Shown in pieces: positions 11,466 to 51,564 of a DNA stretch of 64,000 nt; position 1 is the stretch's first letter; each line of letters begins with the position of its first letter. The notes below the pieces were generated by a model. It was not told the origin of the DNA, did not search any database, and worked only from the letters and a program-made list of their open reading frames with translations. This DNA comes from Escherichia phage RB3. Both the position numbers and the translations under genes were made by a program. Location: sequence record KM606994, one strand, 5' to 3'.

Positions 11466-12083
11466 ATGTACCACTTTGTATATGAAACAACAAATCTAAT
11501 AAATGGTAAAAAGTATATAGGAAAACACTCTACTGATGACTTGAATGATGGTTACCTTGGTTCCGGTAAGGCAATTCAGCAGGCTATAAAGAAATATGGT
11601 GAAAACAATTTCTCTAGAACAATACTAAAAGAGTTTAAAACTTCCGAAGAAGCGTACATGTATGAAGAAGAAATTATAACTCCTGAACTAATAAAAAGCA
11701 AAAATTATTATAATATGAAACCTGGTGGAATTGGTGGAATTGTTATGACTACAGAGGTTATAGCAAAGATGAAAGAATCTTCCGCTAAAAGATTTGAAAA
11801 CTCACCAGGCACGGTATTAGGTAAAACTTGTTACACTAATGGAACTAAAAATATTTTTATTAAACCTGGAGAACTTGTTCCAGAAGGATTTGTAAAAGGG
11901 ATGGTTCATCCTAATAGAAAGTCCAGAAAAGGATGTAAAGTCAAACCGACTACCACAGGAACTTTTTGGGTCAATAATGGCGCAATAAATAAATTAATAC
12001 AACCAGACGGTATTATTCCCGACGGATTTATTAAAGGTCGTCTCATGAAAAGAGATTCTAAAGGCAAATTTAGTAAGGCATAA
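11466..12083 (+). CDS. segE: GIY-YIG homing endonuclease SegE
   Basis: 205 aa; GIY-YIG motif (HFVYETTN...KYIGKH); between inh and uvsW; late promoter at 11440-11447. Confidence 0.85.
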   Translation: MYHFVYETTNLINGKKYIGKHSTDDLNDGYLGSGKAIQQAIKKYGENNFSRTILKEFKTSEEAYMYEEEIITPELIKSKNYYNMKPGGIGGIVMTTEVIAKMKESSAKRFENSPGTVLGKTCYTNGTKNIFIKPGELVPEGFVKGMVHPNRKSRKGCKVKPTTTGTFWVNNGAINKLIQPDGIIPDGFIKGRLMKRDSKGKFSKA

Positions 12084-12085
12084 TT

Positions 12086-13594
12086 ATGGATATTAAAGTA
12101 CATTTTCACGACTTCAGTCATGTACGCATCGATTGTGAAGAGAGCACGTTCCACGAATTAAGAGATTTCTTTTCGTTTGAGGCCGATGGATATAGATTTA
12201 ACCCTCGCTTCAGATATGGCAACTGGGATGGACGAATCCGTCTGTTAGATTATAATCGTCTTCTTCCATTCGGCTTAGTCGGGCAAATTAAAAAGTTCTG
12301 TGATAACTTTGGCTATAAAGCTTGGATTGACCCGCAAATTAACGAAAAAGAAGAATTATCAAGAAAAGATTTTGATGAATGGCTTTCTAAATTAGAAATC
12401 TATTCAGGAAATAAAAGAATTGAACCGCACTGGTATCAAAAAGATGCAGTGTTCGAAGGATTAGTTAATCGTCGTAGAATTCTTAATCTTCCAACATCTG
12501 CAGGTAAATCTTTAATTCAAGCTTTGCTTGCGCGATATTATTTGGAAAATTATGAAGGTAAAATTCTTATCATTGTTCCAACAACTGCTTTAACAACTCA
12601 GATGGCTGATGACTTCGTTGACTATCGTTTATTCAGTCATGCAATGATAAAGAAAATCGGCGGCGGAGCATCAAAAGATGATAAATATAAAAATGATGCA
12701 CCAGTCGTTGTTGGTACATGGCAAACTGTAGTAAAACAACCAAAAGAATGGTTCTCACAATTTGGAATGATGATGAATGATGAATGTCATCTTGCTACAG
12801 GAAAAAGTATTTCATCTATCATATCAGGTTTAAATAACTGCATGTTCAAATTTGGTCTATCGGGTTCATTACGTGATGGCAAAGCCAATATCATGCAGTA
12901 TGTTGGAATGTTTGGTGAAATATTTAAACCAGTAACGACTTCTAAATTAATGGAAGATGGACAAGTAACTGAGCTAAAAATTAATAGTATTTTTCTTCGC
13001 TATCCCGATGAGTTCACTACTAAATTAAAGGGAAAAACTTACCAAGAAGAAATAAAAATTATTACTGGGCTTAGTAAAAGAAATAAATGGATCGCTAAAT
13101 TAGCTATTAAGCTTGCACAAAAAGATGAAAACGCTTTTGTCATGTTTAAACATGTATCGCATGGTAAAGCTATTTTCGATTTAATTAAAAATGAATACGA
13201 TAAAGTTTATTACGTATCAGGGGAAGTTGATACCGAAACCCGCAACGTAATGAAAACCTTAGCTGAAAATGGTAAAGGAATAATTATAGTAGCTAGTTAT
13301 GGTGTATTTTCTACTGGTATTTCAGTTAAAAATCTGCATCACGTTGTTTTAGCGCACGGTGTTAAATCTAAAATTATTGTATTGCAAACAATCGGTCGTG
13401 TATTACGTAAGCATGGTTCTAAAACAATCGCAACAGTCTGGGACCTCATAGATGATTGTGGTGTTAAGCCAAAATCTGCTAATACTAAAAAGAAATATGT
13501 TCATTTGAACTATCTTTTAAAACACGGCATTGATCGTATTCAGCGCTACGCAGATGAAAAATTTAATTACGTAATGAAAACAGTTAATTTATAA
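12086..13594 (+). CDS. uvsW: UvsW SF2 DNA/RNA helicase
   Basis: 502 aa; Walker A (PTSAGKS) and DECH box. Confidence 0.93.
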   Translation: MDIKVHFHDFSHVRIDCEESTFHELRDFFSFEADGYRFNPRFRYGNWDGRIRLLDYNRLLPFGLVGQIKKFCDNFGYKAWIDPQINEKEELSRKDFDEWLSKLEIYSGNKRIEPHWYQKDAVFEGLVNRRRILNLPTSAGKSLIQALLARYYLENYEGKILIIVPTTALTTQMADDFVDYRLFSHAMIKKIGGGASKDDKYKNDAPVVVGTWQTVVKQPKEWFSQFGMMMNDECHLATGKSISSIISGLNNCMFKFGLSGSLRDGKANIMQYVGMFGEIFKPVTTSKLMEDGQVTELKINSIFLRYPDEFTTKLKGKTYQEEIKIITGLSKRNKWIAKLAIKLAQKDENAFVMFKHVSHGKAIFDLIKNEYDKVYYVSGEVDTETRNVMKTLAENGKGIIIVASYGVFSTGISVKNLHHVVLAHGVKSKIIVLQTIGRVLRKHGSKTIATVWDLIDDCGVKPKSANTKKKYVHLNYLLKHGIDRIQRYADEKFNYVMKTVNL

Positions 13595-13619
13595 GGGCTT
13601 CGGCCCTTTGGAGAAAAAG

Positions 13620-13850
13620 ATGTTACTAGAATTTAAACAATTTCTTTATGAAGCTTCTATTGATGAATTTATGGGTAAAATTGCCTCTTGCCAAACATTA
13701 GAAGGTCTAGAAGAACTTGAAGCTTATTATAAGAAAAGAGTTAAAGAAACTGAATTAAAAGATACTGATGACATCTCTGTGAGAGATGCTTTGGCAGGAA
13801 AAAGAGCTGAATTAGAAGATTCAGACGATGAAGTAGAAGAAAGCTTTTAA
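13620..13850 (+). CDS. uvsW.1: UvsW.1 small protein
   Basis: 76 aa from the ATG at 13620 (ORF-track start at 13608 is TTG); SD GGAG upstream. Confidence 0.78.
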   Translation: MLLEFKQFLYEASIDEFMGKIASCQTLEGLEELEAYYKKRVKETELKDTDDISVRDALAGKRAELEDSDDEVEESF

Positions 13851-13852
13851 AT

Positions 13853-13882
13853 TAAAAAAGGCCCAACCAAAAAGGAAGGGCC
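13853..13882 (-). terminator. Terminator at the end of the uvsY operon, convergent with uvsW.1
   Basis: Minus strand GGCCC...GGGCC hairpin (13-nt loop) followed by TTTTTTAAT. Confidence 0.5.
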
Positions 13883-13905
13883 AAAACTATAGACTAAAGG
13901 TCACA

Positions 13906-14073
13906 CTATAGCAAAAGTTGTGTTTCATTTAATTGTTCTTCCGAACTTTCTGAAACTGGTAGTTCTTTAATGTAATTATAGCAAGGCCCAGGATGTACAG
14001 GACCTTTGTCTGTTTCAACAACCAATGCAGAATCGATTGGAGTTTTACAGACAACACAAATCTTATCTGACAT
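13906..14073 (-). CDS. Small cysteine-containing protein (uvsY.-2 position)
   Basis: 55-aa ORF (MSDKICVVCKTPIDS...) found by hand, below ORF-track size cutoff. Confidence 0.5.
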   Translation of the reverse strand: MSDKICVVCKTPIDSALVVETDKGPVHPGPCYNYIKELPVSESSEEQLNETQLLL

Positions 14074-14101
14074 GATTGTCTCCTCTGAATTATATATCTA
14101 T

Positions 14102-14326
14102 TTATACAACTCTCATATGCATATCAATGCCCATATCTTTAGAATAAAAATATTCATCAAGATATCCGGAAAATTTTCCTTTAATATAAAGGACATCTTC
14201 ACCACACGGGTGGTCGGCCAGGATACGAATATCCTGACGCTTAAGATTATGCTTTTTCATTAAGAATTGAATTTCCGTTTCAAATTCTTCTTCATAATTA
14301 AAAGCATCATCAATGCTATATCTCAT
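14102..14326 (-). CDS. Hypothetical protein (uvsY.-1 position)
   Basis: 74-aa ORF immediately downstream of uvsY. Confidence 0.6.
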   Translation of the reverse strand: MRYSIDDAFNYEEEFETEIQFLMKKHNLKRQDIRILADHPCGEDVLYIKGKFSGYLDEYFYSKDMGIDMHMRVV

Positions 14327-14739
14327 TATTTTCCAGCCTCAAATGCTCGCATGTCTTGAATATGCTTAATAGCAAATCCACGTGATTTGATAGCATCAAG
14401 AGCTCCGCTACAGAAATCTAATAAAATTCCCCAATATTGTAATGAAGTATCAACCTTTAAAACATCCTTATCAGCTGATAGAACTGTCTTCATTTCTGAT
14501 TTCTCGTAACGATCCATACTAAATTCATCACCATCTCCTCGTCCCGAGTAGTAGTCTAATCTAGCTTTAAGAGCAACTTTTTTCTGTGCTTCAATTCTAA
14601 GCATTTCCTTTTTAATACTTGAATGCTTATTAAGCCATTTACTATATAACATCACATTATTAGCTGCTTCATACTGTAATTTAGTCGAATCTATAAACAC
14701 ATCTTTCTTCAATTCTTCTTGAAGATCTTCTAATCTCAT
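14326..14739 (-). CDS. uvsY: UvsY recombination mediator
   Basis: 137 aa; T4 position; MotA-type middle promoter upstream. Confidence 0.9.
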   Translation of the reverse strand: MRLEDLQEELKKDVFIDSTKLQYEAANNVMLYSKWLNKHSSIKKEMLRIEAQKKVALKARLDYYSGRGDGDEFSMDRYEKSEMKTVLSADKDVLKVDTSLQYWGILLDFCSGALDAIKSRGFAIKHIQDMRAFEAGK

Positions 14740-14779
14740 ATTGTTCTCTATTCAATTGTTATTGGATGGACTTAGATTC

Positions 14780-14806
14780 ATTATACCACGTTTATACGTG
14801 AAGCAT
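14780..14806 (-). promoter_or_regulatory. MotA-dependent middle promoter for uvsY
   Basis: MotA box TGCTTCA about 12 nt from -10 TATAAT on minus strand. Confidence 0.55.
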
Positions 14807-15204
14807 TATACTCTATTACTAGAAGCCAATTGCAGTTTTATCTGCTCAATATCATCGGGGTTATCGATGACCGAAAAGCGTATTTCTACTATCAGAGTAT
14901 AATCATCATAAACGGGTATCACATTAACTGATAATTTATCAATACGCGGCTCATAGTTTCTTACTGCGCTTTCGATATTGCGCTCAACTGTATCAGCAGT
15001 AAGAGGAGTCATATTTTCAAAAAGCTGGTCTGATAAATCACATCCAAATTCAGGGTCAAACGGTCTTGAACCTTTTCTTGTTGTAATAATTCCCAAAAGA
15101 CTGTTTTTAATTGACCTTAATCCAAGTGATCTGGAAACATCTTTGTTCCAATCCATTTTCATTTCCGGGTCAATATCAGAATAAAGCTTATTAATATTTG
15201 CCAT
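14806..15204 (-). CDS. 25: Baseplate wedge protein gp25
   Basis: 132 aa; synteny. Confidence 0.9.
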   Translation of the reverse strand: MANINKLYSDIDPEMKMDWNKDVSRSLGLRSIKNSLLGIITTRKGSRPFDPEFGCDLSDQLFENMTPLTADTVERNIESAVRNYEPRIDKLSVNVIPVYDDYTLIVEIRFSVIDNPDDIEQIKLQLASSNRV

Positions 15205-15830
15205 TATAGTAACTCAAAGAACTCTTTGAGGCCTCTTATTACGTGAGCATGGGTTTTTCCACACTCTGGACACTTAATTGGAACAGCCAAATAAACGGTA
15301 GGCTTTAAAAGCATATCTTTTATAGCTACAATATCTGACTCTGTGATGATAGAATATAAATCTTCTAGTTCCTTTTCATTTAAGTCTTCAACTGGAATGC
15401 TTTCCCCGTTAGCATGAATCGTTTCTATACATGATACTATCATGTGGGCTATATTTTTATCATCAAAAATTTTAGGGTATCGGAATTTAATTTTAATGTC
15501 ACCCAGTGTATACCAGAGGTCTTCTGGCGCATCTATTTGTGTGTGTAATAGATTTATATGGGTTGGTATTTCAGTTCCACAGGTGCACTTCCAGGAGTTT
15601 TCGTGATTAACTTCGCCGAGAGAATGTGCCCATAAATGAATCAACAATAGTTCTGATTCTTGGCGGTTTAAATCTTTTGCATTTGTGCAGTCTTTGATTA
15701 GCTTTTTAACAATTACTTCTACAGAACCATTATTTTTGGCAGTAATAAGTTCTAGATATTCTTTAAGCGTGAATGCGCGACAATTGATTATTTTAGAACC
15801 AACTCTCACATCAAATTTGTATTCATACAT
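15204..15830 (-). CDS. 26: Baseplate hub protein gp26
   Basis: 208 aa; divergent late promoter shared with gene 51. Confidence 0.85.
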
Positions 15831-15851
15831 ATTTAGCTCCTTTATTTATCA

Positions 15852-15863
15852 TATTTATAAATA
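15852..15863. promoter_or_regulatory. Overlapping divergent late promoters (minus: gene 26; plus: gene 51)
   Basis: TATTTATAAATA contains TATAAATA on both strands, offset by 4 nt. Confidence 0.7.
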
Positions 15864-15880
15864 GAATAAAAGGAGCATCT

Positions 15881-16630
15881 ATGGCAAACATTATTCGTTG
15901 TAAATTACCAGATGGTGTTCATCGTTTTAAACCATTTACGGTAGAAGATTATCGAGATTTTTTGTTAGTTCGAAACGATATAGAACATCGGTCACCACAA
16001 GAACAAAAAGAAATAATTACTGATTTAATTGATGATTATTTTGGAGACTATCCGAAGACTTGGCAACCATTTATATTTTTGCAGGTATTTGTAGGGTCAA
16101 TAGGTAAAACTAAAGTACCAGTCACATTCGTATGTCCAAAATGTAAAAAAGAAAAGACAGTTCCATTTGAAATATATCAAAAAGAATTAAAGGAACCTGT
16201 TTTTGATGTAGCTAATGTTAAAATTAAATTAAAGTTTCCTTCTGAGTTTTATGAAAATAAAGCAAAGATGATTACTGAAAATATTCATTCTGTTCAAGTA
16301 GATGAAATATGGTATGATTGGAAGGAAATTAGCGAGTCCAGTCAAATAGAACTAGTTGACGCCATCGAGATAGAAACATTAGAAAAAATTCTCGATGCAA
16401 TGAATCCTATTAATTTAACTCTACATATGTCATGCTGTAATAAGTACATTAAAAAATACACTGATATAGTAGACGTGTTTAAGCTATTAGTTAACCCAGA
16501 TGAGATATTTACTTTTTATCAAATTAATCACACACTCGTAAAAAGTAATTATAGCTTAAATTCAATAATGAAAATGATTCCTGCTGAGCGCGGATTCGTA
16601 TTAAAACTGATTGAGAAGGATAAACAATAA
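15881..16630 (+). CDS. 51: Baseplate hub assembly protein gp51
   Basis: 249 aa; late promoter at 15856-15863. Confidence 0.85.
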
Positions 16631-17805
16631 TGAGTATGTTGCAACGCCCCGGATATCCAAATCTCAGCGTTAAATTATTTGATAGCTACGACGCTTGGAG
16701 TAATAATAGATTTGTTGAATTAGCTGCTACTATTACCACATTAACTATGCGGGATTCTCTTTATGGACGAAATGAAGGAATGCTGCAGTTTTATGATTCT
16801 AAAAACATCCATACAAAAATGGATGGAAATGAAATAATTCAGATTTCTGTAGCTAATGCAAATGATATTAATAATGTTAAAACACGAATTTATGGATGTA
16901 AGCATTTTTCCGTGTCAGTAGATTCAAAAGGTGATAACATCATTGCTATTGAATTGGGAACTATTCATTCTATAGAAAATCTTAAATTTGGTAGACCATT
17001 TTTCCCTGATGCAGGTGAATCTATAAAAGAAATGCTTGGTGTCATTTATCAGGATCGCACATTATTAACTCCAGCAATAAATGCTATAAATGCTTATGTT
17101 CCTGATATTCCATGGACTAGCACATTTGAAAACTATTTGTCATATGTAAGAGAAGTTGCTCTAGCTGTAGGAAGCGACAAATTTGTATTTGTGTGGCAAG
17201 ACATCATGGGAGTTAACATGATGGACTATGATATGATGATAAATCAAGAACCATATCCAATGATTGTCGGTGAGCCATCTTTAATAGGTCAATTCATCCA
17301 AGAATTAAAATATCCATTAGCATATGATTTTGTTTGGTTGACTAAATCGAATCCTCACAAACGTGACCCAATGAAAAATGCTACTATCTATGCTCATTCA
17401 TTTTTAGATTCTTCATTGCCAATGATTACTACAGGAAAGGGCGAAAACTCTATTGTAGTGTCAAGGTCAGGTGCTTATTCTGAAATGACTTATAGGAATG
17501 GATATGAAGAAGCTATTCGTCTTCAAACTATGGCACAATATGACGGCTATGCTAAATGTTCTACTGTCGGTAATTTTAACTTGACTCCTGGCGTTAAAAT
17601 TATTTTTAATGATAGTAAAAACCAATTTAAAACAGAATTTTACGTTGATGAAGTTATCCATGAATTATCCAATAATAATTCAGTAACTCATCTATATATG
17701 TTCACTAATGCAACGAAACTGGAAACAATAGACCCAGTTAAGGTTAAAAATGAATTTAAATCTGATACTACCACTGAAGAAAGTAGTTCTTCCAATAAGC
17801 AATAA
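16630..17805 (+). CDS. 27: Baseplate hub protein gp27
   Basis: 391 aa; synteny. Confidence 0.9.
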
Positions 17806-18283
17806 AGAAGTTTCTATTCCTAAAATGGGTCTTAAACATTATAACATTTTAAAAGATGTTAAAGGTCCTGATGAAAATTTAAAACTTCTTATTGATTCTA
17901 TTTGTCCGAATTTATCACCGGCAGAAGTTGATTTCGTTTCTATTCATTTATTGGAATTTAATGGAAAGATTAAATCTCGTAAAGAAATAGATGGCTATAC
18001 TTATGACATTAATGATGTTTATGTGTGCCAAAGATTAGAGTTTCAATACCAAGGAAATACATTTTATTTTAGACCTCCTGGAAAATTTGAACAATTTTTA
18101 ACAGTGAGCGATATGTTATCTAAATGCTTACTTAAGGTCAATGATGAAGTTAAAGAAATTAATTTTCTTGAGATGCCAGCATTCGTTTTAAAATGGGCAA
18201 ATGATATTTTTACAACTTTAGCAATTCCTGGCCCTAATGGTCCAATAACTGGAATTGGCAATATTATTGGATTATTTGAATGA
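17750..18283 (+). CDS. 28: Baseplate hub distal subunit gp28
   Basis: 177 aa; overlaps gp27 3' end; synteny. Confidence 0.8.
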
Positions 18284-20052
18284 AAAAGCCACAAGAAATG
18301 CAAACGATGCGTAGAAAAGTTATTTCAGATAATAAACCAACACAGGAAGCGGCTAAATCCGCTTCTAACACTTTATCTGGACTTAATGATATATCTACGA
18401 AATTGGATGATGCTCAAGCTGCTTCTGAATTAATAGCTCAAACTGTCGAAGAAAAATCGAATGAAATAGTTGGAGCAATTGGTAACGTAGAAAGCGCAGT
18501 GAGTGATACTACTGCTGGTTCTGAGTTAATTGCTGAAACTGTCGAAATTGGCAATAATATTAATAAAGAAATCGGTGAATCGCTCGGAAGCAAATTAGAT
18601 AAATTAACAAGTTTACTAGAGCAAAAAATCCAGACAGCTGGAATTCAACAGACTGGAACTAGTTTAGCCACTGTTGAAAGCGCTATTCCTGTTAAAGTCG
18701 TTGAGGATGATACTGCTGAATCTGTGGGTCCTTTATTACCAGCTCCTGAAGCAGTTAATAATGATCCTGACGCTGATTTTTTCCCTACCCCTCAGCCAGT
18801 TGAACCCAAACAAGAATCACCAGAAGAAAAACAGAAAAAAGAAGCATTTAACTTAAAATTATCTCAAGCTTTAGATAAATTAACAAAGACTGTTGATTTT
18901 GGATTTAAGAAATCCATTTCAATTAGTGATAAAATATCAAGCATGTTATTTAAGTACACCATCAGTGCTGCTATTGAAGCCGCTAAAATGACTGCAATGA
19001 TATTGGCTGTTGTTGTTGGAATAGACCTGTTGATGGTTCATTTTAAATACTGGTCAGATAAATTTTCAAAAGCCTGGGATTTATTTAATACTGACTTTAC
19101 TAAATTCTCTAGCGAAACCGGAACATGGGGTCCTTTATTACAGAGCATCTTTGATTCTATTGATAAAATTAAACAACTTTGGGAAGCGGGAGATTGGGGT
19201 GGATTGACAGCAGCTATTGTTGAAGGACTCGGAAGTGTTCTTTTTAATTTAGGTGAACTTATTCAATTAGGTATGGCTAAATTATCTGCAGCAATTCTTC
19301 GAGTCATTCCTGGTATGAAGGATACTGCTGATGAAGTAGAAGGAAGAGCATTAGAAAATTTCCAAAATTCTACTGGAGCATCTCTCAATAAAGAAGACCA
19401 AGAAAAAGTTGCAAATTATCAAGATAAACGAATGAACGGAGACCTTGGTCCGATAGCAAAAGGATTAGATAAAATTGCTAATTGGAAAACTCGTGCATCT
19501 AATTGGATTCGCGGGGTTGATAATAAAGAAGCACTAACTACCGACGAAGAACGTGCAGCAGAAGAAGAAAAATTAAAGCAACTTTCACCGGAAGAAAGAA
19601 AAAATGCTTTAATGAAGGCTAATGAAGCTCGTGCTGCGATGATTCGTTTTGAAAAATATGCCGATTCAGCTGATATGAGTAAAGACTCAACAGTTAAATC
19701 AGTTGAATCTGCCTATGAAGACCTTAAAAAACGGATGGATGACCCGGATTTAAATAATTCACCGGCAGTTAAAAAAGAACTTGCTGCTAGATTTTCTAAA
19801 ATTGATGCTACTTATCAAGAGCTCAAGAAAAATCAGCCTAATGCCAAACCTGAAACTTCTGCTAAATCGCCAGAAGCGAAACAAGTCCAGGTTATTGAAA
19901 AGAACAAAGCACAGCAAGCTCCTGTTCAACAAGCATCTCCTTCAATCAATAATACTAATAATGTTATTAAGAAAAATACTGTCGTTCATAATATGACACC
20001 TGTTACGAGTACAACTGCTCCTGGTGTATTTGGCGCGACTGGAGTTAATTAA
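18280..20052 (+). CDS. 29: Tail-length tape measure / baseplate hub protein gp29
   Basis: 590 aa; synteny. Confidence 0.9.
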   Translation: MKKPQEMQTMRRKVISDNKPTQEAAKSASNTLSGLNDISTKLDDAQAASELIAQTVEEKSNEIVGAIGNVESAVSDTTAGSELIAETVEIGNNINKEIGESLGSKLDKLTSLLEQKIQTAGIQQTGTSLATVESAIPVKVVEDDTAESVGPLLPAPEAVNNDPDADFFPTPQPVEPKQESPEEKQKKEAFNLKLSQALDKLTKTVDFGFKKSISISDKISSMLFKYTISAAIEAAKMTAMILAVVVGIDLLMVHFKYWSDKFSKAWDLFNTDFTKFSSETGTWGPLLQSIFDSIDKIKQLWEAGDWGGLTAAIVEGLGSVLFNLGELIQLGMAKLSAAILRVIPGMKDTADEVEGRALENFQNSTGASLNKEDQEKVANYQDKRMNGDLGPIAKGLDKIANWKTRASNWIRGVDNKEALTTDEERAAEEEKLKQLSPEERKNALMKANEARAAMIRFEKYADSADMSKDSTVKSVESAYEDLKKRMDDPDLNNSPAVKKELAARFSKIDATYQELKKNQPNAKPETSAKSPEAKQVQVIEKNKAQQAPVQQASPSINNTNNVIKKNTVVHNMTPVTSTTAPGVFGATGVN

Positions 20053-20060
20053 GGAATAAT

Positions 20061-21155
20061 ATGGCAATTGTTAAAGAAATAACTGCTGATTTAATTAAAA
20101 AGTCCGGTGAGAAAATTTCAGCCGGACAGAGCACTAAATCAGAAGTAGTAACTAAAACATACACTGCCCAGTTTCCAACTGGGCGTGCTAGTGGTAATGA
20201 CACTACAGGGGACTTCCAGGTAACAGATCTATATAAGAATGGATTATTATTTACTGCATACAATATGTCATCTAGGGATTCTGGAAGTCTTAGATCGATG
20301 AGATCTAACTACTCTTCTTCATCTTCGAGTATTTTAAGTACAGCCAGAAACACTATTAGTAGTACAGTATCAAAACTATCAAATGGATTAATATCAAATA
20401 ATAATTCAGGAACAATAAGTAAAGCTCCTGTCGCAAACATTCTTTTACCGAGATCTAAATCTGATGTTGATACATCATCACATAGATTTAATGATGTTCA
20501 AGAAAGCCTTATCAGTAGAGGCGGAGGTACTGCTACTGGTGTGCTAAGTAATATTGCTTCAACCGCAGTATTTGGGGCACTGGAAAGTATAACACAAGGT
20601 ATAATGGCTGATAATAATGAGCAGATTTATACGACAGCCAGAAGTATGTACGGTGGCGCTGAAAATAGAACTAAAGTGTTTACATGGGATTTGACTCCAC
20701 GTTCCACAGAAGATTTAATGGCTATTATTAATATCTATCAATATTTTAACTATTTTTCTTATGGTGAAACGGGTAAATCTCAATATGCTGCTGAAATAAA
20801 GGGATATTTAGATGATTGGTATCGTTCTACGTTAATTGAACCTTTATCTCCGGAAGACGCAGCTAAAAATAAAACACTATTTGAGAAAATGACATCGAGT
20901 TTAACTAACGTTCTAGTAGTTTCAAACCCGACAATTTGGATGGTGAAAAACTTTGGTGCAACATCTAAGTTTGATGGAAAAACTGAAATATTTGGTCCAT
21001 GCCAAATTCAAAATATCAGATTTGATAAAACACCTAATGGTAACTTTAACGGATTAGCTATTGCTCCAAACCTCCCTAGTACATTTACTCTCGAGATTAC
21101 TATGAGAGAAATTATCACGTTAAACCGTGCTTCTTTATATGCGGGGACTTTTTAA
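20061..21155 (+). CDS. 48: Baseplate tail-tube junction protein gp48
   Basis: 364 aa; synteny. Confidence 0.9.
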   Translation: MAIVKEITADLIKKSGEKISAGQSTKSEVVTKTYTAQFPTGRASGNDTTGDFQVTDLYKNGLLFTAYNMSSRDSGSLRSMRSNYSSSSSSILSTARNTISSTVSKLSNGLISNNNSGTISKAPVANILLPRSKSDVDTSSHRFNDVQESLISRGGGTATGVLSNIASTAVFGALESITQGIMADNNEQIYTTARSMYGGAENRTKVFTWDLTPRSTEDLMAIINIYQYFNYFSYGETGKSQYAAEIKGYLDDWYRSTLIEPLSPEDAAKNKTLFEKMTSSLTNVLVVSNPTIWMVKNFGATSKFDGKTEIFGPCQIQNIRFDKTPNGNFNGLAIAPNLPSTFTLEITMREIITLNRASLYAGTF

Positions 21156-22120
21156 TGTATTCTTTAGAGGAATTTAATAATCAAGCAATAAACGCAGATT
21201 TCCAACGTAATAATATGTTTAGCTGCGTTTTTGCAACAACTCCATCAACTAAAAGCTCTTCGTTGATAAGTTCAATTAGCAACTTTTCTTATAATAACTT
21301 GGGCCTAAATTCAGATTGGCTAGGATTAACTCAAGGTGATATTAATCAGGGAATTACCACGCTAATTACAGCTGGCACACAAAAACTGATAAGAAAATCA
21401 GGGGTTAGTAAATATCTTATTGGTGCCATGAGTCAACGTACAGTTCAAAGTTTATTAGGCTCATTCACAGTTGGTACATATTTAATTGACTTCTTTAACA
21501 TGGCATATAACTCATCTGGATTGATGATATATTCTGTAAAAATGCCAGAGAACAGATTATCCTATGAAACTGACTGGAACTATAATTCTCCTAATATTCG
21601 TATAACCGGAAGAGAATTAGACCCTTTGGTTATTTCATTTAGAATGGATTCAGAAGCTTGTAACTATCGTGCAATGCAAGACTGGGTTAACGCTGTTCAA
21701 GACCCAGTAACTGGATTACGTGCTTTGCCACAAGATGTCGAGGCAGATATTCAGGTTAATCTTCATGCTCGTAATGGATTACCTCATACTGCGGTGATGT
21801 TCACCGGATGCATTCCAATATCAGTGAGCGCTCCTGAGTTATCATATGATGGAGATAACCAAATAACTACATTTGACGTTACTTTTGCGTATAGAGTGAT
21901 GCAGGCTGGAGCAGTTGATAGGCAAGCTGCGCTTGAATGGCTTGAATCTGCTGCTATAAATGGTATTCAAAGCGTTCTCGGAAATAGTGGAGGTGTTACT
22001 GGACTATCTAATTCGCTTTCACGACTCAGTAGATTAGGAGGAACTGCGGGGAGCATTTCAAACATTAATACTATGACAGGAATTGTCAATTCGCAAAGTA
22101 AAATATTAGGAGCAATATAA
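21155..22120 (+). CDS. 54: Baseplate tail-tube initiator gp54
   Basis: 321 aa; followed by GGGGACC-GAAA-GGUCCCC terminator. Confidence 0.9.
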   Translation: MYSLEEFNNQAINADFQRNNMFSCVFATTPSTKSSSLISSISNFSYNNLGLNSDWLGLTQGDINQGITTLITAGTQKLIRKSGVSKYLIGAMSQRTVQSLLGSFTVGTYLIDFFNMAYNSSGLMIYSVKMPENRLSYETDWNYNSPNIRITGRELDPLVISFRMDSEACNYRAMQDWVNAVQDPVTGLRALPQDVEADIQVNLHARNGLPHTAVMFTGCIPISVSAPELSYDGDNQITTFDVTFAYRVMQAGAVDRQAALEWLESAAINGIQSVLGNSGGVTGLSNSLSRLSRLGGTAGSISNINTMTGIVNSQSKILGAI

Positions 22121-22124
22121 CAAT

Positions 22125-22153
22125 GGGGACCGAAAGGTCCCCATATTTTTATT
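22125..22153. terminator. Terminator between gene 54 and alt.-3 (convergent)
   Basis: GGGGACC-GAAA-GGTCCCC followed by ATATTTTTATTT. Confidence 0.75.
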
Positions 22154-22439
22154 TACGGAATGAAATGAAAGCAGAAACTGAAGCAACTAAACTGTCTTCA
22201 ATATAAACTTCAATTTTTACCGGAGCTTCTGACTCAAATTTACCTGTTACTACACTCTGAAAAATACTTTCAGACTGTTCTGGCTTTGAAAAATTTTCAG
22301 AAGGAAAAATTCCAAACTTTTTATCTGTTCCAAAAATTTTAATAAATTCATCGTAAACTGCTTCATTAAAAGCATTATCAGCAGGAATAACGCCTTCAAC
22401 TACAAGTTCTTGACCTAAAAAGCGCAAAGAAGATTTCAT
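22149..22439 (-). CDS. Hypothetical protein (alt.-3 position)
   Basis: 96-aa ORF; early-type promoter cassette upstream. Confidence 0.5.
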   Translation of the reverse strand: MKSSLRFLGQELVVEGVIPADNAFNEAVYDEFIKIFGTDKKFGIFPSENFSKPEQSESIFQSVVTGKFESEAPVKIEVYIEDSLVASVSAFISFRK

Positions 22440-22446
22440 TTTGTGT

Positions 22447-22500
22447 TCCTCATGTTATGTCAGTAAGTCTACTATAACACAACACGAGGGACTTGTAAAC
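22447..22500 (-). repeat. 54-bp early promoter/leader cassette, copy A
   Basis: Hand alignment: 52 of 54 nt identical to 37922-37975. Confidence 0.85.
22471..22500 (-). promoter_or_regulatory. Early-type promoter (GTTTAC -35, TATAGT -10) upstream of alt.-3
   Basis: GTTTAC-18 nt-TATAGT on minus strand; part of a 54-bp repeat. Confidence 0.6.
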
Positions 22501-24557: not shown

Positions 24558-24560
24558 GAT

Positions 24561-26654: not shown

Positions 26655-26677
26655 CATAGCCTCTCTAGTGTTTATTC

Positions 26678-30595: not shown

Positions 30596-30635
30596 AACAT
30601 TTTCCTCAGTAAGGGGCCAAAGCCCCTCATTTATT

Positions 30636-35339: not shown

Positions 35340-36543
<1,204 letters not shown>

Positions 36544-36547
<4 letters not shown>

Positions 36548-37978: not shown

Positions 37979-39566
<1,588 letters not shown>

Positions 39567-39593
39567 AATAAAATGGGCCTTGCGGCCCACTCC

Positions 39594-40096: not shown

Positions 40097-41187
40097 CGTT
40101 ATGTTCGATTGAGCTCGCTAATTCTCAACCCGTTCTCTTATGAACTGCTACATATTACTATGCAGACCAGACTATATCACAATCCCAGAGGGATTCTCCC
40201 CATTTCGAGTCGCTTGACCCTACGTCCGAAGACTAGTCGTTGAACCTTGCTTTGCAATTGTCGCCGTGCCATCGTTTATATGTTGATGGTGATAAATCTT
40301 TCTTATCACAATATGGACAATTCAATTGAATTCTATTTGGATTTAATTTACATCTGTCATTATGTTTTAGATAAAATCCAGGACCTTTACCAATGTGACC
40401 GCAGAAATCACATGTGATTTCTTTTTGTGCAGGATGGGTCCCGTTCTTAACCATTTCTAATGTTTTTGCTGATGTTCTTTTCTTATGGTCTTCTGACAAG
40501 AAATGATGTGAACCGTCATTTACCCGTTTTGATTGAGTTTCTGACTGCATTTTACCACCGCAAAATACATGAGTACCTTCTTTTATAGCTGCAATATTGC
40601 GTTCTTTAACTTTTGCAATATGCTCAGCTTGTTGAAAATTATGTATACCTAATGCAACTCTATTTAAATTAGATTTACGCTGTATTTCACCGTCTAAAAG
40701 ATGAAATGTACCATTTTCTATCTTAGATTTAATAGAGGCAATATTTTTAGCTCGTACTTCAGGGATATTAAAAATCTGGATTTCTCTAGATTTTGCGGCT
40801 TTAGAAGCTAATTCAGAAATTTCTTCAGGAGAATATTTCATTCTAAGCTTTATAGCATGACAAGCCTGGTAATCTTTTTGAGCTAAATGTATATCATAAT
40901 GTTCCTGTATAGAAAGGCACATCAAATTATCTAAATCATTATTTTCACGGTTACCGTCTTTATGATGGATTTCGTCTGTTCTTCCATCAGAATCTTTAGG
41001 TATAGGTCCGTTAGCATCTATCCAAATTTTTCTATAGTTCAATTGTGCATCCTCTTAAAAGTATAATCATATTTATATTATACTAATTAAAGGTGCAAGC
41101 AAAACCTTGGCTGCTAGTTTTCCTATAAAGGACTTTCCAGCAATTAAAGGAGTTTTCGATAAACGTTACCGTTTAAAGGCGCATTTT
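40097..41187 (-). mobile_element. Group I self-splicing intron in nrdB, about 1.09 kb, carrying I-TevIII
   Basis: Interrupts nrdB between FYVSFA and CTFNFHK; 3' core shares GTAGGGTCAAGYGACTCGAAA and GATATAGTCTG with the td intron; boundaries inferred, +/- a few nt. Confidence 0.8.
40233..41042 (-). CDS. Intron-encoded HNH homing endonuclease I-TevIII, full length
   Basis: 269 aa; HNH motif (EIHHKDGNRENNDLDNLMCLSIQEHYDIH); inside nrdB intron. Confidence 0.85.
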   Translation of the reverse strand: MNYRKIWIDANGPIPKDSDGRTDEIHHKDGNRENNDLDNLMCLSIQEHYDIHLAQKDYQACHAIKLRMKYSPEEISELASKAAKSREIQIFNIPEVRAKNIASIKSKIENGTFHLLDGEIQRKSNLNRVALGIHNFQQAEHIAKVKERNIAAIKEGTHVFCGGKMQSETQSKRVNDGSHHFLSEDHKKRTSAKTLEMVKNGTHPAQKEITCDFCGHIGKGPGFYLKHNDRCKLNPNRIQLNCPYCDKKDLSPSTYKRWHGDNCKARFND

Positions 41188-41863
41188 ACGCAAAAGATAC
41201 ATAAAAACGAATAGCTTCTAAGGCATTAATAACGTGCAAACAGAGGTAAAGAGATTTCATTAAAGCACGTTTAGCTTCGGCTTCTTGCTTAATAGCTCGG
41301 TTTAAACGAAAGTCGGCATCAGGAGATTCTTTAGCTAGTTCTACAAATTCTTTAGCATTTTCCCATTCACGGGTTTTAATCAGAACATCATCATAATAGC
41401 GACCGATAGATTCAGCGCGTTTCATAATAGCTTCATCTAATACAATCTCATCAAACACCTTTGACGGATCAGTATAAAGATTTCGCATGATATGTGTATA
41501 TGAACGACTGTGAATAGTTTCACTAAAAGTCCATGTAGCAACCCATGTATCAAGACTTGGGTCTGAAATTAATGACATAAGTACAGCAGATGGCGCACGA
41601 CCCTGAATGCTATCCAAAAGTGATTGATACTTCAGATTATTAGTAAAAATATTTTGCTGATACTGAGGAAGCTTATTAAACTGTGCAGCATCCATCATTA
41701 AGTTTACTTCTTCCGGGCGCCAGAAGAATGACAATTGCTTTTCGGTCAAATCTTCAAAAACTTTATGGCGTTGAATATCATAACGCGCAATACCAAGACC
41801 TGAACCAAAAAACATGGGTTCTTTTAAAACATCAACTGGATTTGTATTAAAAACTGTAGACAT
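41188..41863 (-). CDS. nrdB: Ribonucleotide reductase small subunit NrdB, exon 1
   Basis: Starts MSTVFNTNPVDVLKEPMFFGSG; ATG overlaps mobE stop (TAATG); exon ends ...RFYVSFA + split Cys codon. Confidence 0.8.
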
Positions 41864-42594
41864 TAATTTTTCCTCTTTAAAATTCTGCCGCGTTTCCAAC
41901 CTGGCGGTATAATATCATCTTTACCTATAAGCGTGCATTCACTTCCATTATTAATCCATTTCTTACCGCGGATTCCTTTATAATCTCTTGGTTGTATTTT
42001 ATCAAACTTTGCATCAAGTTGATATGACCATCTAAATCCATAGGCATATTGAAATTTACCCTCAGCACAATATTTGATATTTGACCCGTTTCCATTAACT
42101 GACCTGGACGCTGCCGCAATAGAGTGAAAGGTTTCTATGAAATCCCCATCTAATGAGAATTTATGTATTTCGATAGATGGGCATGCATACCTATTCACGT
42201 TTGATACATGTTGTTTAGTTTCGTTTTTATGATGCTTGCCTAACATTCCTCTAGGATGAGGATTATTTTTCCAATATTTCTTAAAGAAATCAGAATTAGC
42301 TTTAGCAAATAATTTTCTGTGCAAGCTATACAATCTGTTATTAATTCTATTACCAGCTTTATCTGTTGCCATTAACGTTAACGCAGAGGCAAGCCCAAAA
42401 TGGCCTTCATTTATCTTACATAGTAATAGATGCGCTATAAAATGTTCTCTAGCTGTTAATTCAACTAAATTTTCTTTATCATCAGAACCTCCCATGCATT
42501 TAGGGACTATATGATGTGTCTCTTTATATTCAGATAAAGGTTCCCGAGCCTGAGCTCGGGAAATTAGGTCATTATAGATTTTTTGATAATTCAT
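41863..42594 (-). CDS. mobE: HNH homing endonuclease MobE
   Basis: 243 aa; HNH motif (HHIVPKCMGGSDDKENLVELTAREHFIAH); between nrdA and nrdB. Confidence 0.75.
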   Translation of the reverse strand: MNYQKIYNDLISRAQAREPLSEYKETHHIVPKCMGGSDDKENLVELTAREHFIAHLLLCKINEGHFGLASALTLMATDKAGNRINNRLYSLHRKLFAKANSDFFKKYWKNNPHPRGMLGKHHKNETKQHVSNVNRYACPSIEIHKFSLDGDFIETFHSIAAASRSVNGNGSNIKYCAEGKFQYAYGFRWSYQLDAKFDKIQPRDYKGIRGKKWINNGSECTLIGKDDIIPPGWKRGRILKRKN

Positions 42595-45727: not shown

Positions 45728-46743
45728 CATTATGTTCAGATAAGGTCGTTAATCTTACCCCGGAATTATATCCAGCTGCATGTCACCATGCAGATCAGAC
45801 TATATCTCCAACTTGTTAAAGCAAGTTGTCTATCGTTTCGAGTCACTTGACCCTACTCCCCAAAGGGATAGTCGTTAGGCATTTATGTAGAACCAATTCC
45901 ATTTATCAGATTTTACACGATAAGTAACTAATCCAGACGAAATTTTAAAATGTCTAGCTGCATCTGCTGCACAATCAAAAATAACCCCATCACATGAAAT
46001 CTTTTTAATATTACTAGGCTTTTTACCTTTCATCTTTTCTGATATTTTAGATTTAGTTATGTCTGAATGCTTATGATTAAAGAATGAATTATTTTCACCT
46101 GAACGATTTCTGCATTTACTACAAGTATAAGCAGAAGTTTGTATGCGAACACCGCACTTACAAAACTTATGGGTTTCTGGATTCCAACGCCCGTTTTTAC
46201 TTCCGGGTTTACTGTAAAGAGCTTTCCGACCATCAGGTCCAAGTTTAAGCATCTTAGCTTTAACAGTTTCAGAACGTTTCTTAATAATTTCTTCTTTTAA
46301 TGGATGCGTAGAACATGTATCACCAAACGTTGCATCAGCAATATTGTATCCATTAATTTTAGAATTAAGCTCTTTAATCCAAAAATTTTCTCGTTCAATA
46401 ATCAAATCTTTCTCATATGGAATTTCTTCCAAAATAGAACATTCAAACACATTACCATGTTTGTTAAAAGACCTCTGAAGTTTTATAGAAGAATGGCATC
46501 CTTTTTCTAAATCTTTAAAATGCCTCTTCCATCTCTTTTCAAAATCTTTAGCACTTCCTACATATACTTTATTGTTTAAAGTATTTTTAATCTGATAAAT
46601 TCCGCTTTTCATAAATACCTCTTTAAATATAGAAGTATTTATTAAAGGGCAGTCCTACAATTTAGCACGGGATTGTCTACTAGAGAGGTTCCCCGTTTAG
46701 ATAGATTACAAGTATAAGTCACCTTATACTCAGGCCTCAATTA
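45728..46743 (-). mobile_element. Group I self-splicing intron in td (1016 nt) carrying I-TevI
   Basis: 5' end TAATTGAGGCCTGAGTATAAGGTG after exon ...TTGGGT; 3' end ...CATAATG; length equals the T4 td intron. Confidence 0.92.
45875..46612 (-). CDS. Intron-encoded GIY-YIG homing endonuclease I-TevI
   Basis: 245 aa; MKSGIYQIKNTLNNKVYVGSAK... Confidence 0.93.
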   Translation of the reverse strand: MKSGIYQIKNTLNNKVYVGSAKDFEKRWKRHFKDLEKGCHSSIKLQRSFNKHGNVFECSILEEIPYEKDLIIERENFWIKELNSKINGYNIADATFGDTCSTHPLKEEIIKKRSETVKAKMLKLGPDGRKALYSKPGSKNGRWNPETHKFCKCGVRIQTSAYTCSKCRNRSGENNSFFNHKHSDITKSKISEKMKGKKPSNIKKISCDGVIFDCAADAARHFKISSGLVTYRVKSDKWNWFYINA

Positions 46744-47292
46744 ACCCAAGAAAACATCTACTGATCGTTGATACCACTGCAAATCCAAATAGCCATTACG
46801 CACATTAAACTGATAGAACATATGACAAGGCGGTAATGCCATATATTTAAGTTCAGCTGGATTCCACGCAGAAACAATTTGTCGCCTATCATTCGGCAGT
46901 TTTTTAATACGATCAATAACTTCTACAATTTGGTCTACACCGCCAAAATCACGCCATTGTTTTCCATAAATTGGACCAAGTTCACCGCTATGGTATCCTA
47001 AATCTTTTGCTTGATTTTCGTAATTTTCATCCCAGACTGTTTTGCCTTGGATTAACGAATCATGCTGAATTAATCGTAAATCATTTACGTTAGTACTTCC
47101 TGATAAGAACCAAAGTAGCTCAGCAATGCAAGCTTTCCAAGCGAGCTTTTTAGTTGTTACTGCAGGAAAACCTTTACTTAAATCCCAGCGTAATTTAGTA
47201 CCGAACAAAGCAATTGTTCCTGTGCCCGTTCGGTCATCGGTTTCATAGCCATTTTCAAAAATGTCTTTAATTAAATCTTGGTATTGTTTCAT
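46744..47292 (-). CDS. td: Thymidylate synthase, exon 1
   Basis: MKQYQDLIKDIFENGYETDDRTGTGT...; exons sum to 286 codons. Confidence 0.92.
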
Positions 47293-47336
47293 TTAGTACC
47301 TTATATAAATTATAATACATTTTATGAAGCTAATAA

Positions 47337-48533
<1,197 letters not shown>

Positions 48534-48554
48534 ATTACCTCCTATTAAAAAGGA

Positions 48555-48878
48555 TCAGGAAACATATCCACTAGATTTAATCATTTTAATTAATGTTAAC
48601 ATTCCTTTATTAACTGCTCGTGAGATTTCATCAAAAACTTCATCGCTAAAAAGTTCTAACACGCCATACTGAACTTTTAATTTACAGCCAGCAATTTCGT
48701 TTTCGCCTATAGTAAATTCGTTTCCGCCAATTCCACCGAAAAACTTAATCACGCCAGTTAACTGTCTTCCACGAGAATATGGGTCGTGTGATAAAGTAAT
48801 ATGAGTCACCCCAGGTACAGTTTTAAATTGGCAGCGAATGTTTACTTGGGAAATTCCAGTTACATGAATGTCAGACAT
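48555..48878 (-). CDS. Hypothetical protein
   Basis: 107-aa ORF. Confidence 0.45.
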   Translation of the reverse strand: MSDIHVTGISQVNIRCQFKTVPGVTHITLSHDPYSRGRQLTGVIKFFGGIGGNEFTIGENEIAGCKLKVQYGVLELFSDEVFDEISRAVNKGMLTLIKMIKSSGYVS

Positions 48879-49595: not shown

Positions 49596-49823
49596 TTATT
49601 GTTCGATCAGTCCCATGTAAAATTCTGTGTCTTCAGAATCCATGCCATCACAATATTCATTAGCCATAAAGCGGGTAAGGTCTTCAAGAGGACCTTCAAT
49701 GACAATAGAAAAATTGCAATAATTGGGATCATCATGAATACTTGTGATACTAAGTTCAGGATAACGATTACGAATAATTTCTTCAATATATTCAAAATCA
49801 ACGATGTCAATATCAACTTTAGC
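49596..49823 (-). CDS. Hypothetical small acidic protein
   Basis: 75 aa from [11 protein letters not shown]...; SD AAAGAGGAAAA. Confidence 0.4.
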
Positions 49824-49920
49824 CATATTATTTTCCTCTTTAATTATCAACAGTATTGCCGATAGTTGTATAGTACCATGGAAGGACAAGGATGTAAACC
49901 GTTTTGTGAAAAAATTTTTG

Positions 49921-49949
49921 AAATAAAAAAGGGGACCTCTAGGGTCCCC
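49921..49949 (-). terminator. Terminator after gene 32
   Basis: Minus strand GGGGACC-CUAGA-GGUCCCC followed by UUUUUUAUUU. Confidence 0.8.
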
Positions 49950-49971
49950 AATTAATTAGTAATATAATCTA

Positions 49972-50877
49972 TTAAAGGTCATTCAAAAGGTCATCTAGGT
50001 CCGTGTCATCAGCACTAGATGAACTGCCAGAGCTTGAGCTCATAAAATCATCTTCAGTTTTTGTATTGAAGTCATCAACATTGAATGCATCCAAATCATC
50101 AGCAACTTTATCAGCTTTCTTAGCAGCAGTCGCTGCGGCACCACCCATTGCAGCAGTTCCCATAACTTGACTGAACTTAGTGCTCAGTTCTTCAAACGAT
50201 TTGAATTTATCTTTAGAAGTCATTTCAGAAAGGTCAACCATTTGTTCGAACAGTTCTTTCTGGAAAGATTCATCGTCAATGTTTGGAATCGCAGATTGAT
50301 TCAGGAATTTAGATTCGTCGTAGTTACTAAATCCAGAAACCTGTTTAACTTTCAGTACAAAGTTAGCACCTTCCCACGGACAAGTTACATCAACTGGAGT
50401 TTCACCCATTTCAACATCAACCGCAATCATCGCGTTGATTTTATCCCAGATTTTCTTACCGAAACGGTATTTAAATACTTTACCTTCATTTTCTGGAGCA
50501 GCTGGGTCTTTTACAACAAGAATGTTAGCCCAGTAAGAAGTTTTACGTTTAACAAGACTATACTCTTTATTGTCAGTGTTGTACAGATCATTTTTACTGA
50601 TGTATTGACATACTGGGCAAGAATCGTAATCACCATGGGTAGATGAACATGTTTCAATATACCATTTACCATTTTTCTTGAAACCGTGATTTACAAGAAT
50701 TGCGAATGGTGCTTGTTCATCATTTTTAGACGGAAGAAAACGAATTACTGCTTGACCGTTACCCGCATTATCGAGTTTCAGTTTCCACTCGCCTTTATCT
50801 TCAGAAGAAAAACCTTTATTGCCATTCAGTTTAGCCATTTGTGCAGCAAGTTCAGCAGTAGATTTACGTTTAAACAT
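49972..50877 (-). CDS. 32: Single-stranded DNA-binding protein gp32
   Basis: 301 aa; Zn-binding Cys/His cluster; acidic C-terminus; terminator downstream. Confidence 0.95.
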
Positions 50878-50935
50878 TTTATTTCCTTTTTAACTTAATT
50901 TAATTAACAGTTGGTGCTATGACACTTTACCTCAT
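50878..50935 (-). promoter_or_regulatory. Gene 32 translational operator (autoregulatory 5' leader)
   Basis: Leader ...GTGTCATAGCACCAACTG then AU-rich UUAAUUAAAUUAAGUUAAAAAGGAAAUAAAAUG, matching the remembered T4 gene 32 operator architecture. Confidence 0.55.
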
Positions 50936-51564
50936 AGCTGGCATAATTTGCAATACTCTGGGTCTTCGAGAGGTATCCAACCTGAGTTGAAATACTTTAC
51001 CATCGATTTAGCAGTTGTATCAGTTATATTTATATTACCTTTAACTCTTCGCCATCCAGGAGTTTTACCGTACAGATTAGAGGATAATAATAACACATAA
51101 TTCTCGTAAGCAATATGAGATAATTTCCAAGACTCTATATTAGCTCGTGATGTTTTCCAAGGTCTAAAATCGTCACGGTTCATATAATTAGCCAATCTCA
51201 TATGCTCTCTAACTTCCGGGTCTTTGGCTGGATGAGTTTCACCACTCACACCAAATCCACCACCAGCATATACCAGATTAAAATAGTCTGGATTATCTCT
51301 GGCATTTACTTCAAGTTGGTATTTTCGTTCTGCTTCAATAACATCCAAGTCATCATCAATTTGAATTATTTTAACGCTCGGTTTTTGAAGCATTAGCGCA
51401 TTCAAAAATCTTTTTTGTTTACATGAGCTCCAGTATTCCTTTCCGGAAGAGTCATATATTATTCCATTCTCAAATGAGCAATTTAATTTACTACCGATAT
51501 AGTAGTATGGCGGAGTCTTATTTTTGACACGGTCTTCAAATGTAAACCAATATACTATATTCAT
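50932..51564 (-). CDS. segG: GIY-YIG homing endonuclease SegG-like
   Basis: 210 aa; GIY-YIG-like (IVYWFTF...PYYYIGSK); between gene 32 and 59. Confidence 0.72.
   Translation of the reverse strand: MNIVYWFTFEDRVKNKTPPYYYIGSKLNCSFENGIIYDSSGKEYWSSCKQKRFLNALMLQKPSVKIIQIDDDLDVIEAERKYQLEVNARDNPDYFNLVYAGGGFGVSGETHPAKDPEVREHMRLANYMNRDDFRPWKTSRANIESWKLSHIAYENYVLLLSSNLYGKTPGWRRVKGNINITDTTAKSMVKYFNSGWIPLEDPEYCKLCQL

Follow-up and report, generated by a model that had tools for sequence, protein, structure and literature searches.

Which mobile nuclease genes does a phage of the RB3 group carry, at which sites, and by what route did its set come to differ from those of its close relatives? We consider these questions for a stretch of 64,000 nucleotides (nt) from Escherichia phage RB3 (sequence record KM606994), here called the window and numbered from its first letter, which, going by the deposited annotation of phage RB5, extends from the end of the intergenic region between genes 18 and 19 to gene t. 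The patchy homing endonuclease content of T-even phages, and its link to marker exclusion, are textbook matters that have been studied for decades. We consider it highly probable that this segment, which belongs to a T-even phage of the RB3 group and reaches from gene 18 to gene t, holds six selfish nuclease genes, at six separate sites, which have spread by homing. Two of them are housed in self-splicing group I introns (I-TevI in td and an intact I-TevIII in nrdB), and the other four are free-standing occupants of intergenic gaps beside conserved genes, namely an open reading frame (ORF) between genes 18 and 19, segE, mobE and segG.

According to the established account of homing in T-even phages (Edgell et al. 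2010, PMC2988022; Wilson and Edgell 2009, PMC2790892), such a nuclease would, in a mixed infection, cut or nick the allele of a related phage that is without the gene, and recombinational repair would then copy the nuclease gene along with some flanking sequence into the broken genome. Occupied sites could later be emptied or decay, and spread by homing combined with such loss or decay would leave close relatives with different sets of occupied sites.

The endonuclease genes of the window

The features at issue, in window coordinates, are the following.

8-625, plus strand: ORF 8-625, 205 amino acids (aa), starting with GTG after GAGGAA, between the tail sheath gene (18) and the tail tube gene (19); RB5 96000-96617
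6615-6697, plus strand: empty 23/24 site, an 83-nt gap at which T4 and T6 have segD
11466-12083, plus strand: segE, free-standing GIY-YIG homing endonuclease gene between inh and uvsW; annotated in RB5
39156-39590, minus strand: denA (endonuclease II), GIY-YIG nuclease, not a homing gene
40097-41187, minus strand: nrdB group I intron, about 1091 nt, boundaries +/-2 nt, housing I-TevIII
40233-41042, minus strand: I-TevIII, intact intron-encoded HNH homing endonuclease, 269 aa, TTG start
41863-42594, minus strand: mobE, RB3 allele, free-standing HNH endonuclease gene between nrdA and nrdB, 243 aa
45728-46743, minus strand: td group I intron, 1016 nt, housing I-TevI; begins TAATTGAGGCCTGAG
45875-46612, minus strand: I-TevI, intron-encoded GIY-YIG homing endonuclease
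50932-51564, minus strand: segG, free-standing GIY-YIG homing endonuclease gene between genes 32 and 59

The initial annotation of this DNA had listed six genes of homing type plus denA within the 64 kb, and every gene that it named is present; SegE, I-TevI, SegG and DenA agree with their T4 counterparts at 99.3-100% of residues. It had also rightly kept denA apart from the homing genes: DenA is a GIY-YIG nuclease (Pfam GIY-YIG, 28.5 bits; 143/144 residues identical to T4 EndoII and 144/144 to that of T6) whose gene is common to all four phages compared here (T4, T6, RB14 and the window) and is not mobile. Five of the six homing endonuclease genes are annotated in the RB5 record and the sixth, ORF 8-625, is not. 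Together the six selfish genes amount to 4149 nt, or 6.5% of the window, at one per 10.7 kb; the equivalent T4 segment also has six such genes, so that the density is equal. A phmmer search of all window ORFs of at least 50 aa, using the window nuclease proteins and T4 SegD as queries, returned no further paralogs, and no nuclease signature is present in the other ORFs inserted relative to T4 (34410-34937, 36245-36547, 47337-47696, 48288-48533 and 48555-48878). Three more homing endonuclease genes are annotated in positions 1-95992 of the RB5 record, outside the window. This brings the RB5 genome, with the last ~8.4 kb of the record excluded, to approximately nine, as against 15 in T4 (PMC2988022), and T4 remains the outlier.

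Site occupancy among close relatives

At eight sites, the occupancy observed in T4, T6, RB14 and the window is as follows.

18/19: empty in T4 and RB14; ORF160 in T6; ORF 8-625 in the window
23/24: segD in T4 and T6; empty in RB14 and the window
inh/uvsW: segE in T4, T6, RB14 and the window
inside uvsW: mob-like ORF179 in T6; none in T4, RB14 or the window
nrdB intron: defective I-TevIII in T4; no intron in T6 and RB14; intact I-TevIII in the window
nrdA/nrdB: mobE in T4 (T4 allele), T6 (T6 allele) and the window (RB3 allele); empty in RB14
td intron: I-TevI in T4, T6 and the window; no intron in RB14
32/59: segG in T4 and the window; empty in T6 and RB14

All four complements are mutually different, and that of RB14 consists of segE only. 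The GIY-YIG genes (those of the Seg proteins and I-TevI) accordingly show presence/absence polymorphism at fixed sites among close relatives. The patchiness extends beyond these genomes: a 20-kb stretch of backbone (window 11000-31000) has matches at 90% identity or more in about 512 phage records, and the single nuclease genes are found in far fewer (segE in 157 at 95% identity or more, segG in 140, I-TevI in 175, full-length I-TevIII in 83, RB3-type mobE in 53, the RB5 allele of the 18/19 ORF in 46 and T4 segD in 55).

The absence of segD from between genes 23 and 24, which the initial annotation had reported, holds up: the 83-nt gap contains only a terminator-like hairpin (6628-6647) followed by a T-run and a late-promoter motif, TATAAATA, at 6663-6670. 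By blastn, T4 106522-107310 (segD) corresponds to about 60 nt in the window; no segD remnant is found in the gap, whose length equals that of the RB14 gap. The claim that the complement is shuffled relative to T4 likewise stands, and the differences exceed those first listed, involving the 18/19 and 23/24 sites, I-TevIII and mobE. It had, however, been presented as a complement that should not coincide with that of any single reference genome, and here the result is the reverse: two published genomes of the RB3 group, those of RB5 and RB7, agree with the checked segment completely. In megablast comparisons, both of these match window 11000-31000 at 100.0% identity over 100% of the query (RB5 as KM606995.1 106992-126992, window position 1 corresponding to RB5 position 95993), and RB6, RB9 and RB10 match it with equal coverage and marginally lower scores. 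RB3, RB5, RB6, RB7, RB9 and RB10 have been reported to be 99.99% similar to each other (Yaung et al. 2015, PMC4293622). The interpretation given in the initial annotation is, overall, partly supported.

Two further genes came to attention in this comparison. T6 ORF179 (T6 segment 16704-17396), annotated as hypothetical, lies inside uvsW, which it splits into two annotated pieces, and it shares 46% identity with the window MobE over its N-terminal 133 aa; given this likeness and its position, it is a probable HNH homing endonuclease insertion. In RB5, a gene labeled 'segD' (39715-40449 of the RB5 record segment, outside the window) lies between nrdG and nrdD and not at 23/24. As it replaces T4 mobC by position, the label looks misleading, and the gene is probably SegH-like.

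Intron-borne and GIY-YIG endonucleases

Removal of the td intron in silico joins 47292-46744 to 45727-45416 and yields an intact 286-aa Td, and the nrdB exons (41863-41188 and 40096-39594, aligned to the intron-less nrdB of T6) likewise join into an uninterrupted 392-aa NrdB. Intron-less alleles occur in RB14 for both genes and in T6 for nrdB. No group I intron in the window reaches the Rfam gathering score of 50 for Intron_gpI (RF00028); td (42.5 bits, E=2e-8) and nrdB (33.9 bits, E=8e-6) match below it, and their scores likely fall short because an endonuclease ORF is inserted in a loop.

I-TevI is identical at 245/245 residues to both the T4 and T6 proteins and matches Pfam GIY-YIG (PF01541, 66.8 bits), I-TevI_ZnF, NUMOD3 and I-TevI_DNA-bd, as well as TIGR01453 (192 bits). 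SegE is identical to T4 SegE at 204/205 residues, matches Pfam PF19835 (SegE_GIY-YIG; 36.5 bits, cut-off 25), aligns over residues 4-131 with the TIGR01453 group I intron endonuclease model and has the late-promoter motif TATAAATA upstream at 11430-11437. SegG has no Pfam or NCBIfam match of its own; it is identical to T4 SegG at 209/210 residues and matches phrog_7504, 'homing endonuclease', at E=8.5e-134. The GIY-YIG class organization of an N-terminal catalytic domain and a separate C-terminal DNA-binding region is found in I-TevI and SegE, with the catalytic domain of SegG being assigned via its T4 identity. Site-specific cleavage and over-inheritance have been reported for T4 SegE, SegG and I-TevI (PMC2988022, Table 1), to which the window proteins are 99.5-100% identical.

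I-TevIII matches Pfam HNH_3 (43.9 bits, cut-off 24.8), is 100% identical to the older RB3 deposit X59078 and has TATAAATA as a promoter motif at 41070-41077 on the minus strand. In T4, this protein is a 97-aa remnant without the part that corresponds to window 40494-40969 (476 nt); from the alignment, the T4 gene appears clearly to be a deletion derivative of the RB3-type gene. Being nearly identical to characterized T4 and RB3 proteins, five of the six window endonucleases, all except the product of ORF 8-625, are presumably active.

At the nucleotide level, segE, I-TevI and segG form islands of identity to T4 (99.4%, 100% and 99.7%, or percentiles 93, 99 and 98 of 650-bp windows), and their flanks fall to 85-93%. 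The contrast is sharpest at td, where the intron has 0 mismatches to T4 over 969 nt (45796-46764) and the exons approximately 80 in 1.3 kb. These islands would fit recent transfer with short co-converted flanks.

A probable module exchange in mobE

The window MobE is 100% identical to RB3 MobE (AY262130.2). Its residues 1-57, the HNH module, are close to T4 MobE, but beyond residue ~60 there is no likeness to T4 MobE, T4 nrdB.1 or T6 MobE; the nucleotide identity drops from 94-100% to 14-50% at approximately 170-180 nt into the gene. With an unrelated C-terminal region of 185 aa, it is no whole-length ortholog of T4 MobE. It is a different allele, the RB3 type, at the T4 site and with the T4 HNH module, followed by an unrelated, presumably DNA-binding, C-terminal region. 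A NUMOD1 domain is detected in residues 147-177 (25.9 bits), and the HNH match (PF01844, 19.3 bits) is below the cut-off of 21.4. T4 MobE loses its function when the HNH motif is deleted (Wilson and Edgell 2009, PMC2790892). At its C-terminal end, the RB3-type protein has 32 aa with 50% identity to a C-terminal repeat of SegE (pattern G..W.NNG....I....IP.G...GR), a likeness that suggests a short module of the DNA-binding type common to the HNH and GIY-YIG classes.

The 5' part of mobE contains a terminator-like hairpin (42562-42541) at the place where a conserved mobE terminator has been described, and the same study reports nrdB exon 1 as the MobE target region (Wilson and Edgell, PMC2790892). 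Exon 1 (41188-41863) is 89% identical to T4 and 81% to T6, and exon 2 (39594-40096) is 98% identical. As exon 1 is the reported target, its divergence may reflect repeated conversion or immunity substitutions.

The gene between the sheath and tube genes

From the gene 18 stop to the gene 19 hairpin and late promoter there are 9 nt in T4 and approximately 655 nt in the window, where this interval has its own hairpin, ribosome-binding site and ORF. The boundaries of the cassette are clean relative to T4, and ORF 8-625 belongs to an intergenic cassette which is present in some close relatives and absent from others. The RB5 record has no feature in 95962-96724, and the RB6 record has none under its match to the ORF. 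Elsewhere, the gene is mostly entered as 'hypothetical protein', once as a homing endonuclease and once as a type II restriction endonuclease. The initial annotation had read the motif of this 'upstream HNH' gene well; the gene lies outside the span over which the cluster had been drawn, and its HNH nature is a matter of indirect evidence, no Pfam or NCBIfam model being significant.

The protein is built of an N-terminal domain, a four-cysteine zinc finger (C59, C62, C77 and C80) and a C-terminal domain with a DH...N...N...K pattern. It belongs to phrog_5104 of PHROGs ('unknown function', E=1.3e-91). There is no Pfam or NCBIfam match at E<=0.01, and 23 close relatives scanned singly gave weak zinc-finger matches and one match to HNH_5 at E=0.22. 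PDB sequence profiles of the whole family and of the C-terminal domain returned zinc-finger and spurious leucine-rich-repeat matches only, and Foldseek found nothing in PDB. Across the 23 close relatives, C59, C62 and C77 are invariant and C80 nearly so, and the C-terminal block reads YQLDHKVSIKYGF..N..NLEIITWE.NR.K; D157, H158, N180, N189 and K192 are invariant in these and in 50 remote relatives. In the predicted model, a strand (154-158) is followed by helices 162-167 and 172-175, and a second strand (181-185) by helix 186-192. The alignments and this model would hence place the expected catalytic residues (D/H-H, N and N/H) in a beta-beta-alpha-metal core. In line with this, Foldseek against the BFVD viral structures gives matches named HNH or homing endonuclease at E=1.5e-6 to 2e-4. 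A profile search with the family recovered 6311 cluster representatives (50% identity clusters) at E<=1e-3. The N-terminal parts of the 50 remote relatives vary and include NUMOD3, helix-turn-helix (HTH) and zinc-ribbon domains; one of these proteins matches HNH_4 at 3.5e-4 and another matches HNH at 3e-3. The evidence is indirect but consistent, and judging by motif and predicted fold, ORF 8-625 is likely to encode an HNH nuclease.

Among small HNH endonucleases that nick DNA or are associated with terminase, the Geobacter Gme HNH (4h9d) and phage GVE2 HNH (5h0o) proteins are only 11-14% identical to it, with no sequence-profile match; the ORF 8-625 protein differs from them in its extra N-terminal domain and four-cysteine finger, and it is without cysteine pairs inside the HNH core. 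A packaging role as a terminase-associated HNH protein was considered because 5h0o is such a protein, and was rejected as the principal explanation, T4 and RB14 being without the gene. T4-type packaging, to our knowledge, needs no terminase-associated HNH protein.

Relatives of ORF 8-625 are carried by 235 phage records. T6 ORF160, likewise one of the uncharacterized phrog_5104 ORFs that T6-type and other T4-like phages have at 18/19, occupies the same site on the same strand and is 50% identical at the protein level. A comparison of RB5 and T6 at 18/19 gives flanks that are 97-100% identical, nt 7-415 of the ORF that are about 45% identical and nt 416-625 that are 82-90% identical. This break inside the ORF, within such similar flanks, points to alleles that differ by an exchanged N-terminal module: the HNH domain would be common to both, and the N-terminal half is strongly diverged. 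A module swap of this kind would also account for the RB3 mobE at nrdA/nrdB. At all eight loci examined, the full-length relative is found immediately 3' of a sheath gene and on its strand (RB5, T6, Bp7, Klebsiella phage HMGUkp2, Sinorhizobium phage phiM12, Shewanella phage Thanatos-2 and two metagenome contigs), and the sheath-linked relatives span Tequatrovirus, Dhakavirus, Klebsiella, Shewanella and Sinorhizobium phages along with metagenome contigs.

Homing element or resident gene

Such a constant position is compatible with site-specific homing and would be equally so with vertical inheritance of an accessory gene. Indeed, the 18/19 ORF might be a resident nuclease or zinc-finger DNA-binding protein that does not home, is tied to the sheath and tube genes or to competition with hosts or other phages, and has been passed on vertically and repeatedly lost. 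Besides its position at the eight loci, the divergence of the gene, which broadly tracks that of the host phages, and the lack of a match to any curated homing endonuclease model speak for this explanation. We nevertheless regard it as doubtful. A fixed site is equally expected from site-specific homing, and the gene is missing, with clean cassette edges, from T4 and RB14 despite near-identical flanks. Moreover, RB5 and T6 have alleles with a swapped N-terminal half between flanks that are 97-100% identical, and among the remote relatives the C-terminal domain of the ORF occurs in combination with NUMOD3, HTH or zinc-ribbon domains, which is the usual modular build of homing endonucleases.

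A search of four genomes for target-site polymorphisms linked to the ORF gives little information: the phages with it (RB5 and T6) are not convincingly set apart from those without it (T4 and RB14), as gene 18 offers no such polymorphism and there are just two isolated positions near or in gene 19. On balance, we lean slightly towards ORF 8-625 being a functional homing element. Still more evenly poised is the wider proposal that it belongs to a family, uncharacterized and very large, of HNH homing endonucleases with free-standing genes, whose full-length members are locked to the sheath/tube junction across T4-superfamily phages of Escherichia, Klebsiella, Shewanella and Sinorhizobium. Such a family would evolve by swapping a presumed DNA-binding N-terminal module, with no change of catalytic module or insertion site.

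Gene 18 itself has a variable patch 52-85 nt before its stop (3378-3411 in the segment read, just upstream of the window), where approximately 17 of the 34 positions differ among RB5, T6, T4 and RB14. The gene is otherwise 97-100% conserved, and the patch shows no correlation with the presence of the downstream ORF.

Homing or loss alone

For the complement as a whole, we infer the direction, gain or loss, of each site difference, as presence and absence alone do not give it. The differences from T4 could stem from deletion or decay in one lineage or the other, with segD lost in the RB3 lineage and I-TevIII deleted in T4, and with no recent horizontal homing at all; the T4 I-TevIII, with 476 nt of the RB3-type gene gone, is clearly of the kind that this explanation predicts. 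As a complete account it is improbable. The 23/24 gap has the RB14 length and no trace of segD, the mismatch-free td intron stands between divergent exons, with similar islands at segE and segG, and homing of segE, segG, mobE and the introns in crosses has been documented experimentally (PMC2988022, PMC2790892). Spread by homing remains the reading that we prefer; against it, an identity island around a shared gene can also arise by purifying selection on the intron or gene.

That the combination is an artefact of assembly or annotation, such as a chimeric contig, is conceivable for genomes built by short-read de novo assembly (PMC4293622), but nothing was found in its favor and it is effectively refuted by independent deposits, as five separately deposited RB genomes (RB5, RB6, RB7, RB9 and RB10) match the checked segment at 100.0% identity, the older RB3 deposits X59078 (I-TevIII) and AY262130.2 (mobE and nrdA) match exactly, and dozens of other phage isolates have the same alleles.

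Other differences in the window

Several further differences from T4 lie outside the nuclease genes. In the window (12086-13850, plus strand), uvsW (502 aa) and uvsW.1 are separate ORFs with a stop codon, a GGGCTTCGGCCC hairpin and a GGAG ribosome-binding site between them, whereas the T4 RefSeq (NC_000866.4) has small indels in this hairpin and reads through as a single 587-aa UvsW. At 22500-24557 (minus strand), alt.-2 encodes a full-length 685-aa paralog of the ADP-ribosyltransferase Alt (Pfam ADPrib_exo_Tox). The full-length gene also occurs in T6 and RB14; at this locus T4 retains just short remnants of alt.-1 and alt.-2. Insertions relative to T4 at 34416-34934, 36246-36540 and 47296-47699 hold RB5_212 (175 aa), RB5_215 (100 aa) and RB5_230 (119 aa), to which no function is assigned, and T4 cd.4 and cd.5 are absent from the window. 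Another inserted segment (48309-48821) contains, along with RB5_232, an ORF of 107 aa (48555-48878, minus strand) that matches DUF7247 (E=7e-42) and phrog_3566 and is missing from the RB5 record, an annotation gap. Finally, within 59702-63461, neither gene 38 nor the 3' part of gene 37 is related to T4. The product of the former (62653-63456) is a T2/T6-type adhesin (Pfam GP38), which suggests that receptor recognition differs from that of T4.

Implications for T-even phages

The mosaic complement of the window is already known and ordinary: its content is identical to that of RB5 and its relatives, its exact sequence has been public since 2015, and mosaicism in T-even phages is well known. 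Its mobE nevertheless bears on nomenclature. The name is misleading, since the genes that bear it have only the catalytic module in common from phage to phage, and the same target specificity should therefore not be assumed for them.

As far as we have found, the sole undocumented part, and the only one worth following up, is the sheath-linked family of HNH-like ORFs with module-swapped alleles. No publication on an 18/19 endonuclease came up in a literature search, and the omission of ORF 8-625, a conserved gene, from the RB5 and RB6 records is an annotation gap. The occupied (RB5 and T6) and empty (T4 and RB14) alleles, lying in near-identical flanks, would provide a cheap test system for homing by this new HNH family, and the same set of alleles would also be suited to asking how a swap of the DNA-binding module changes the target.

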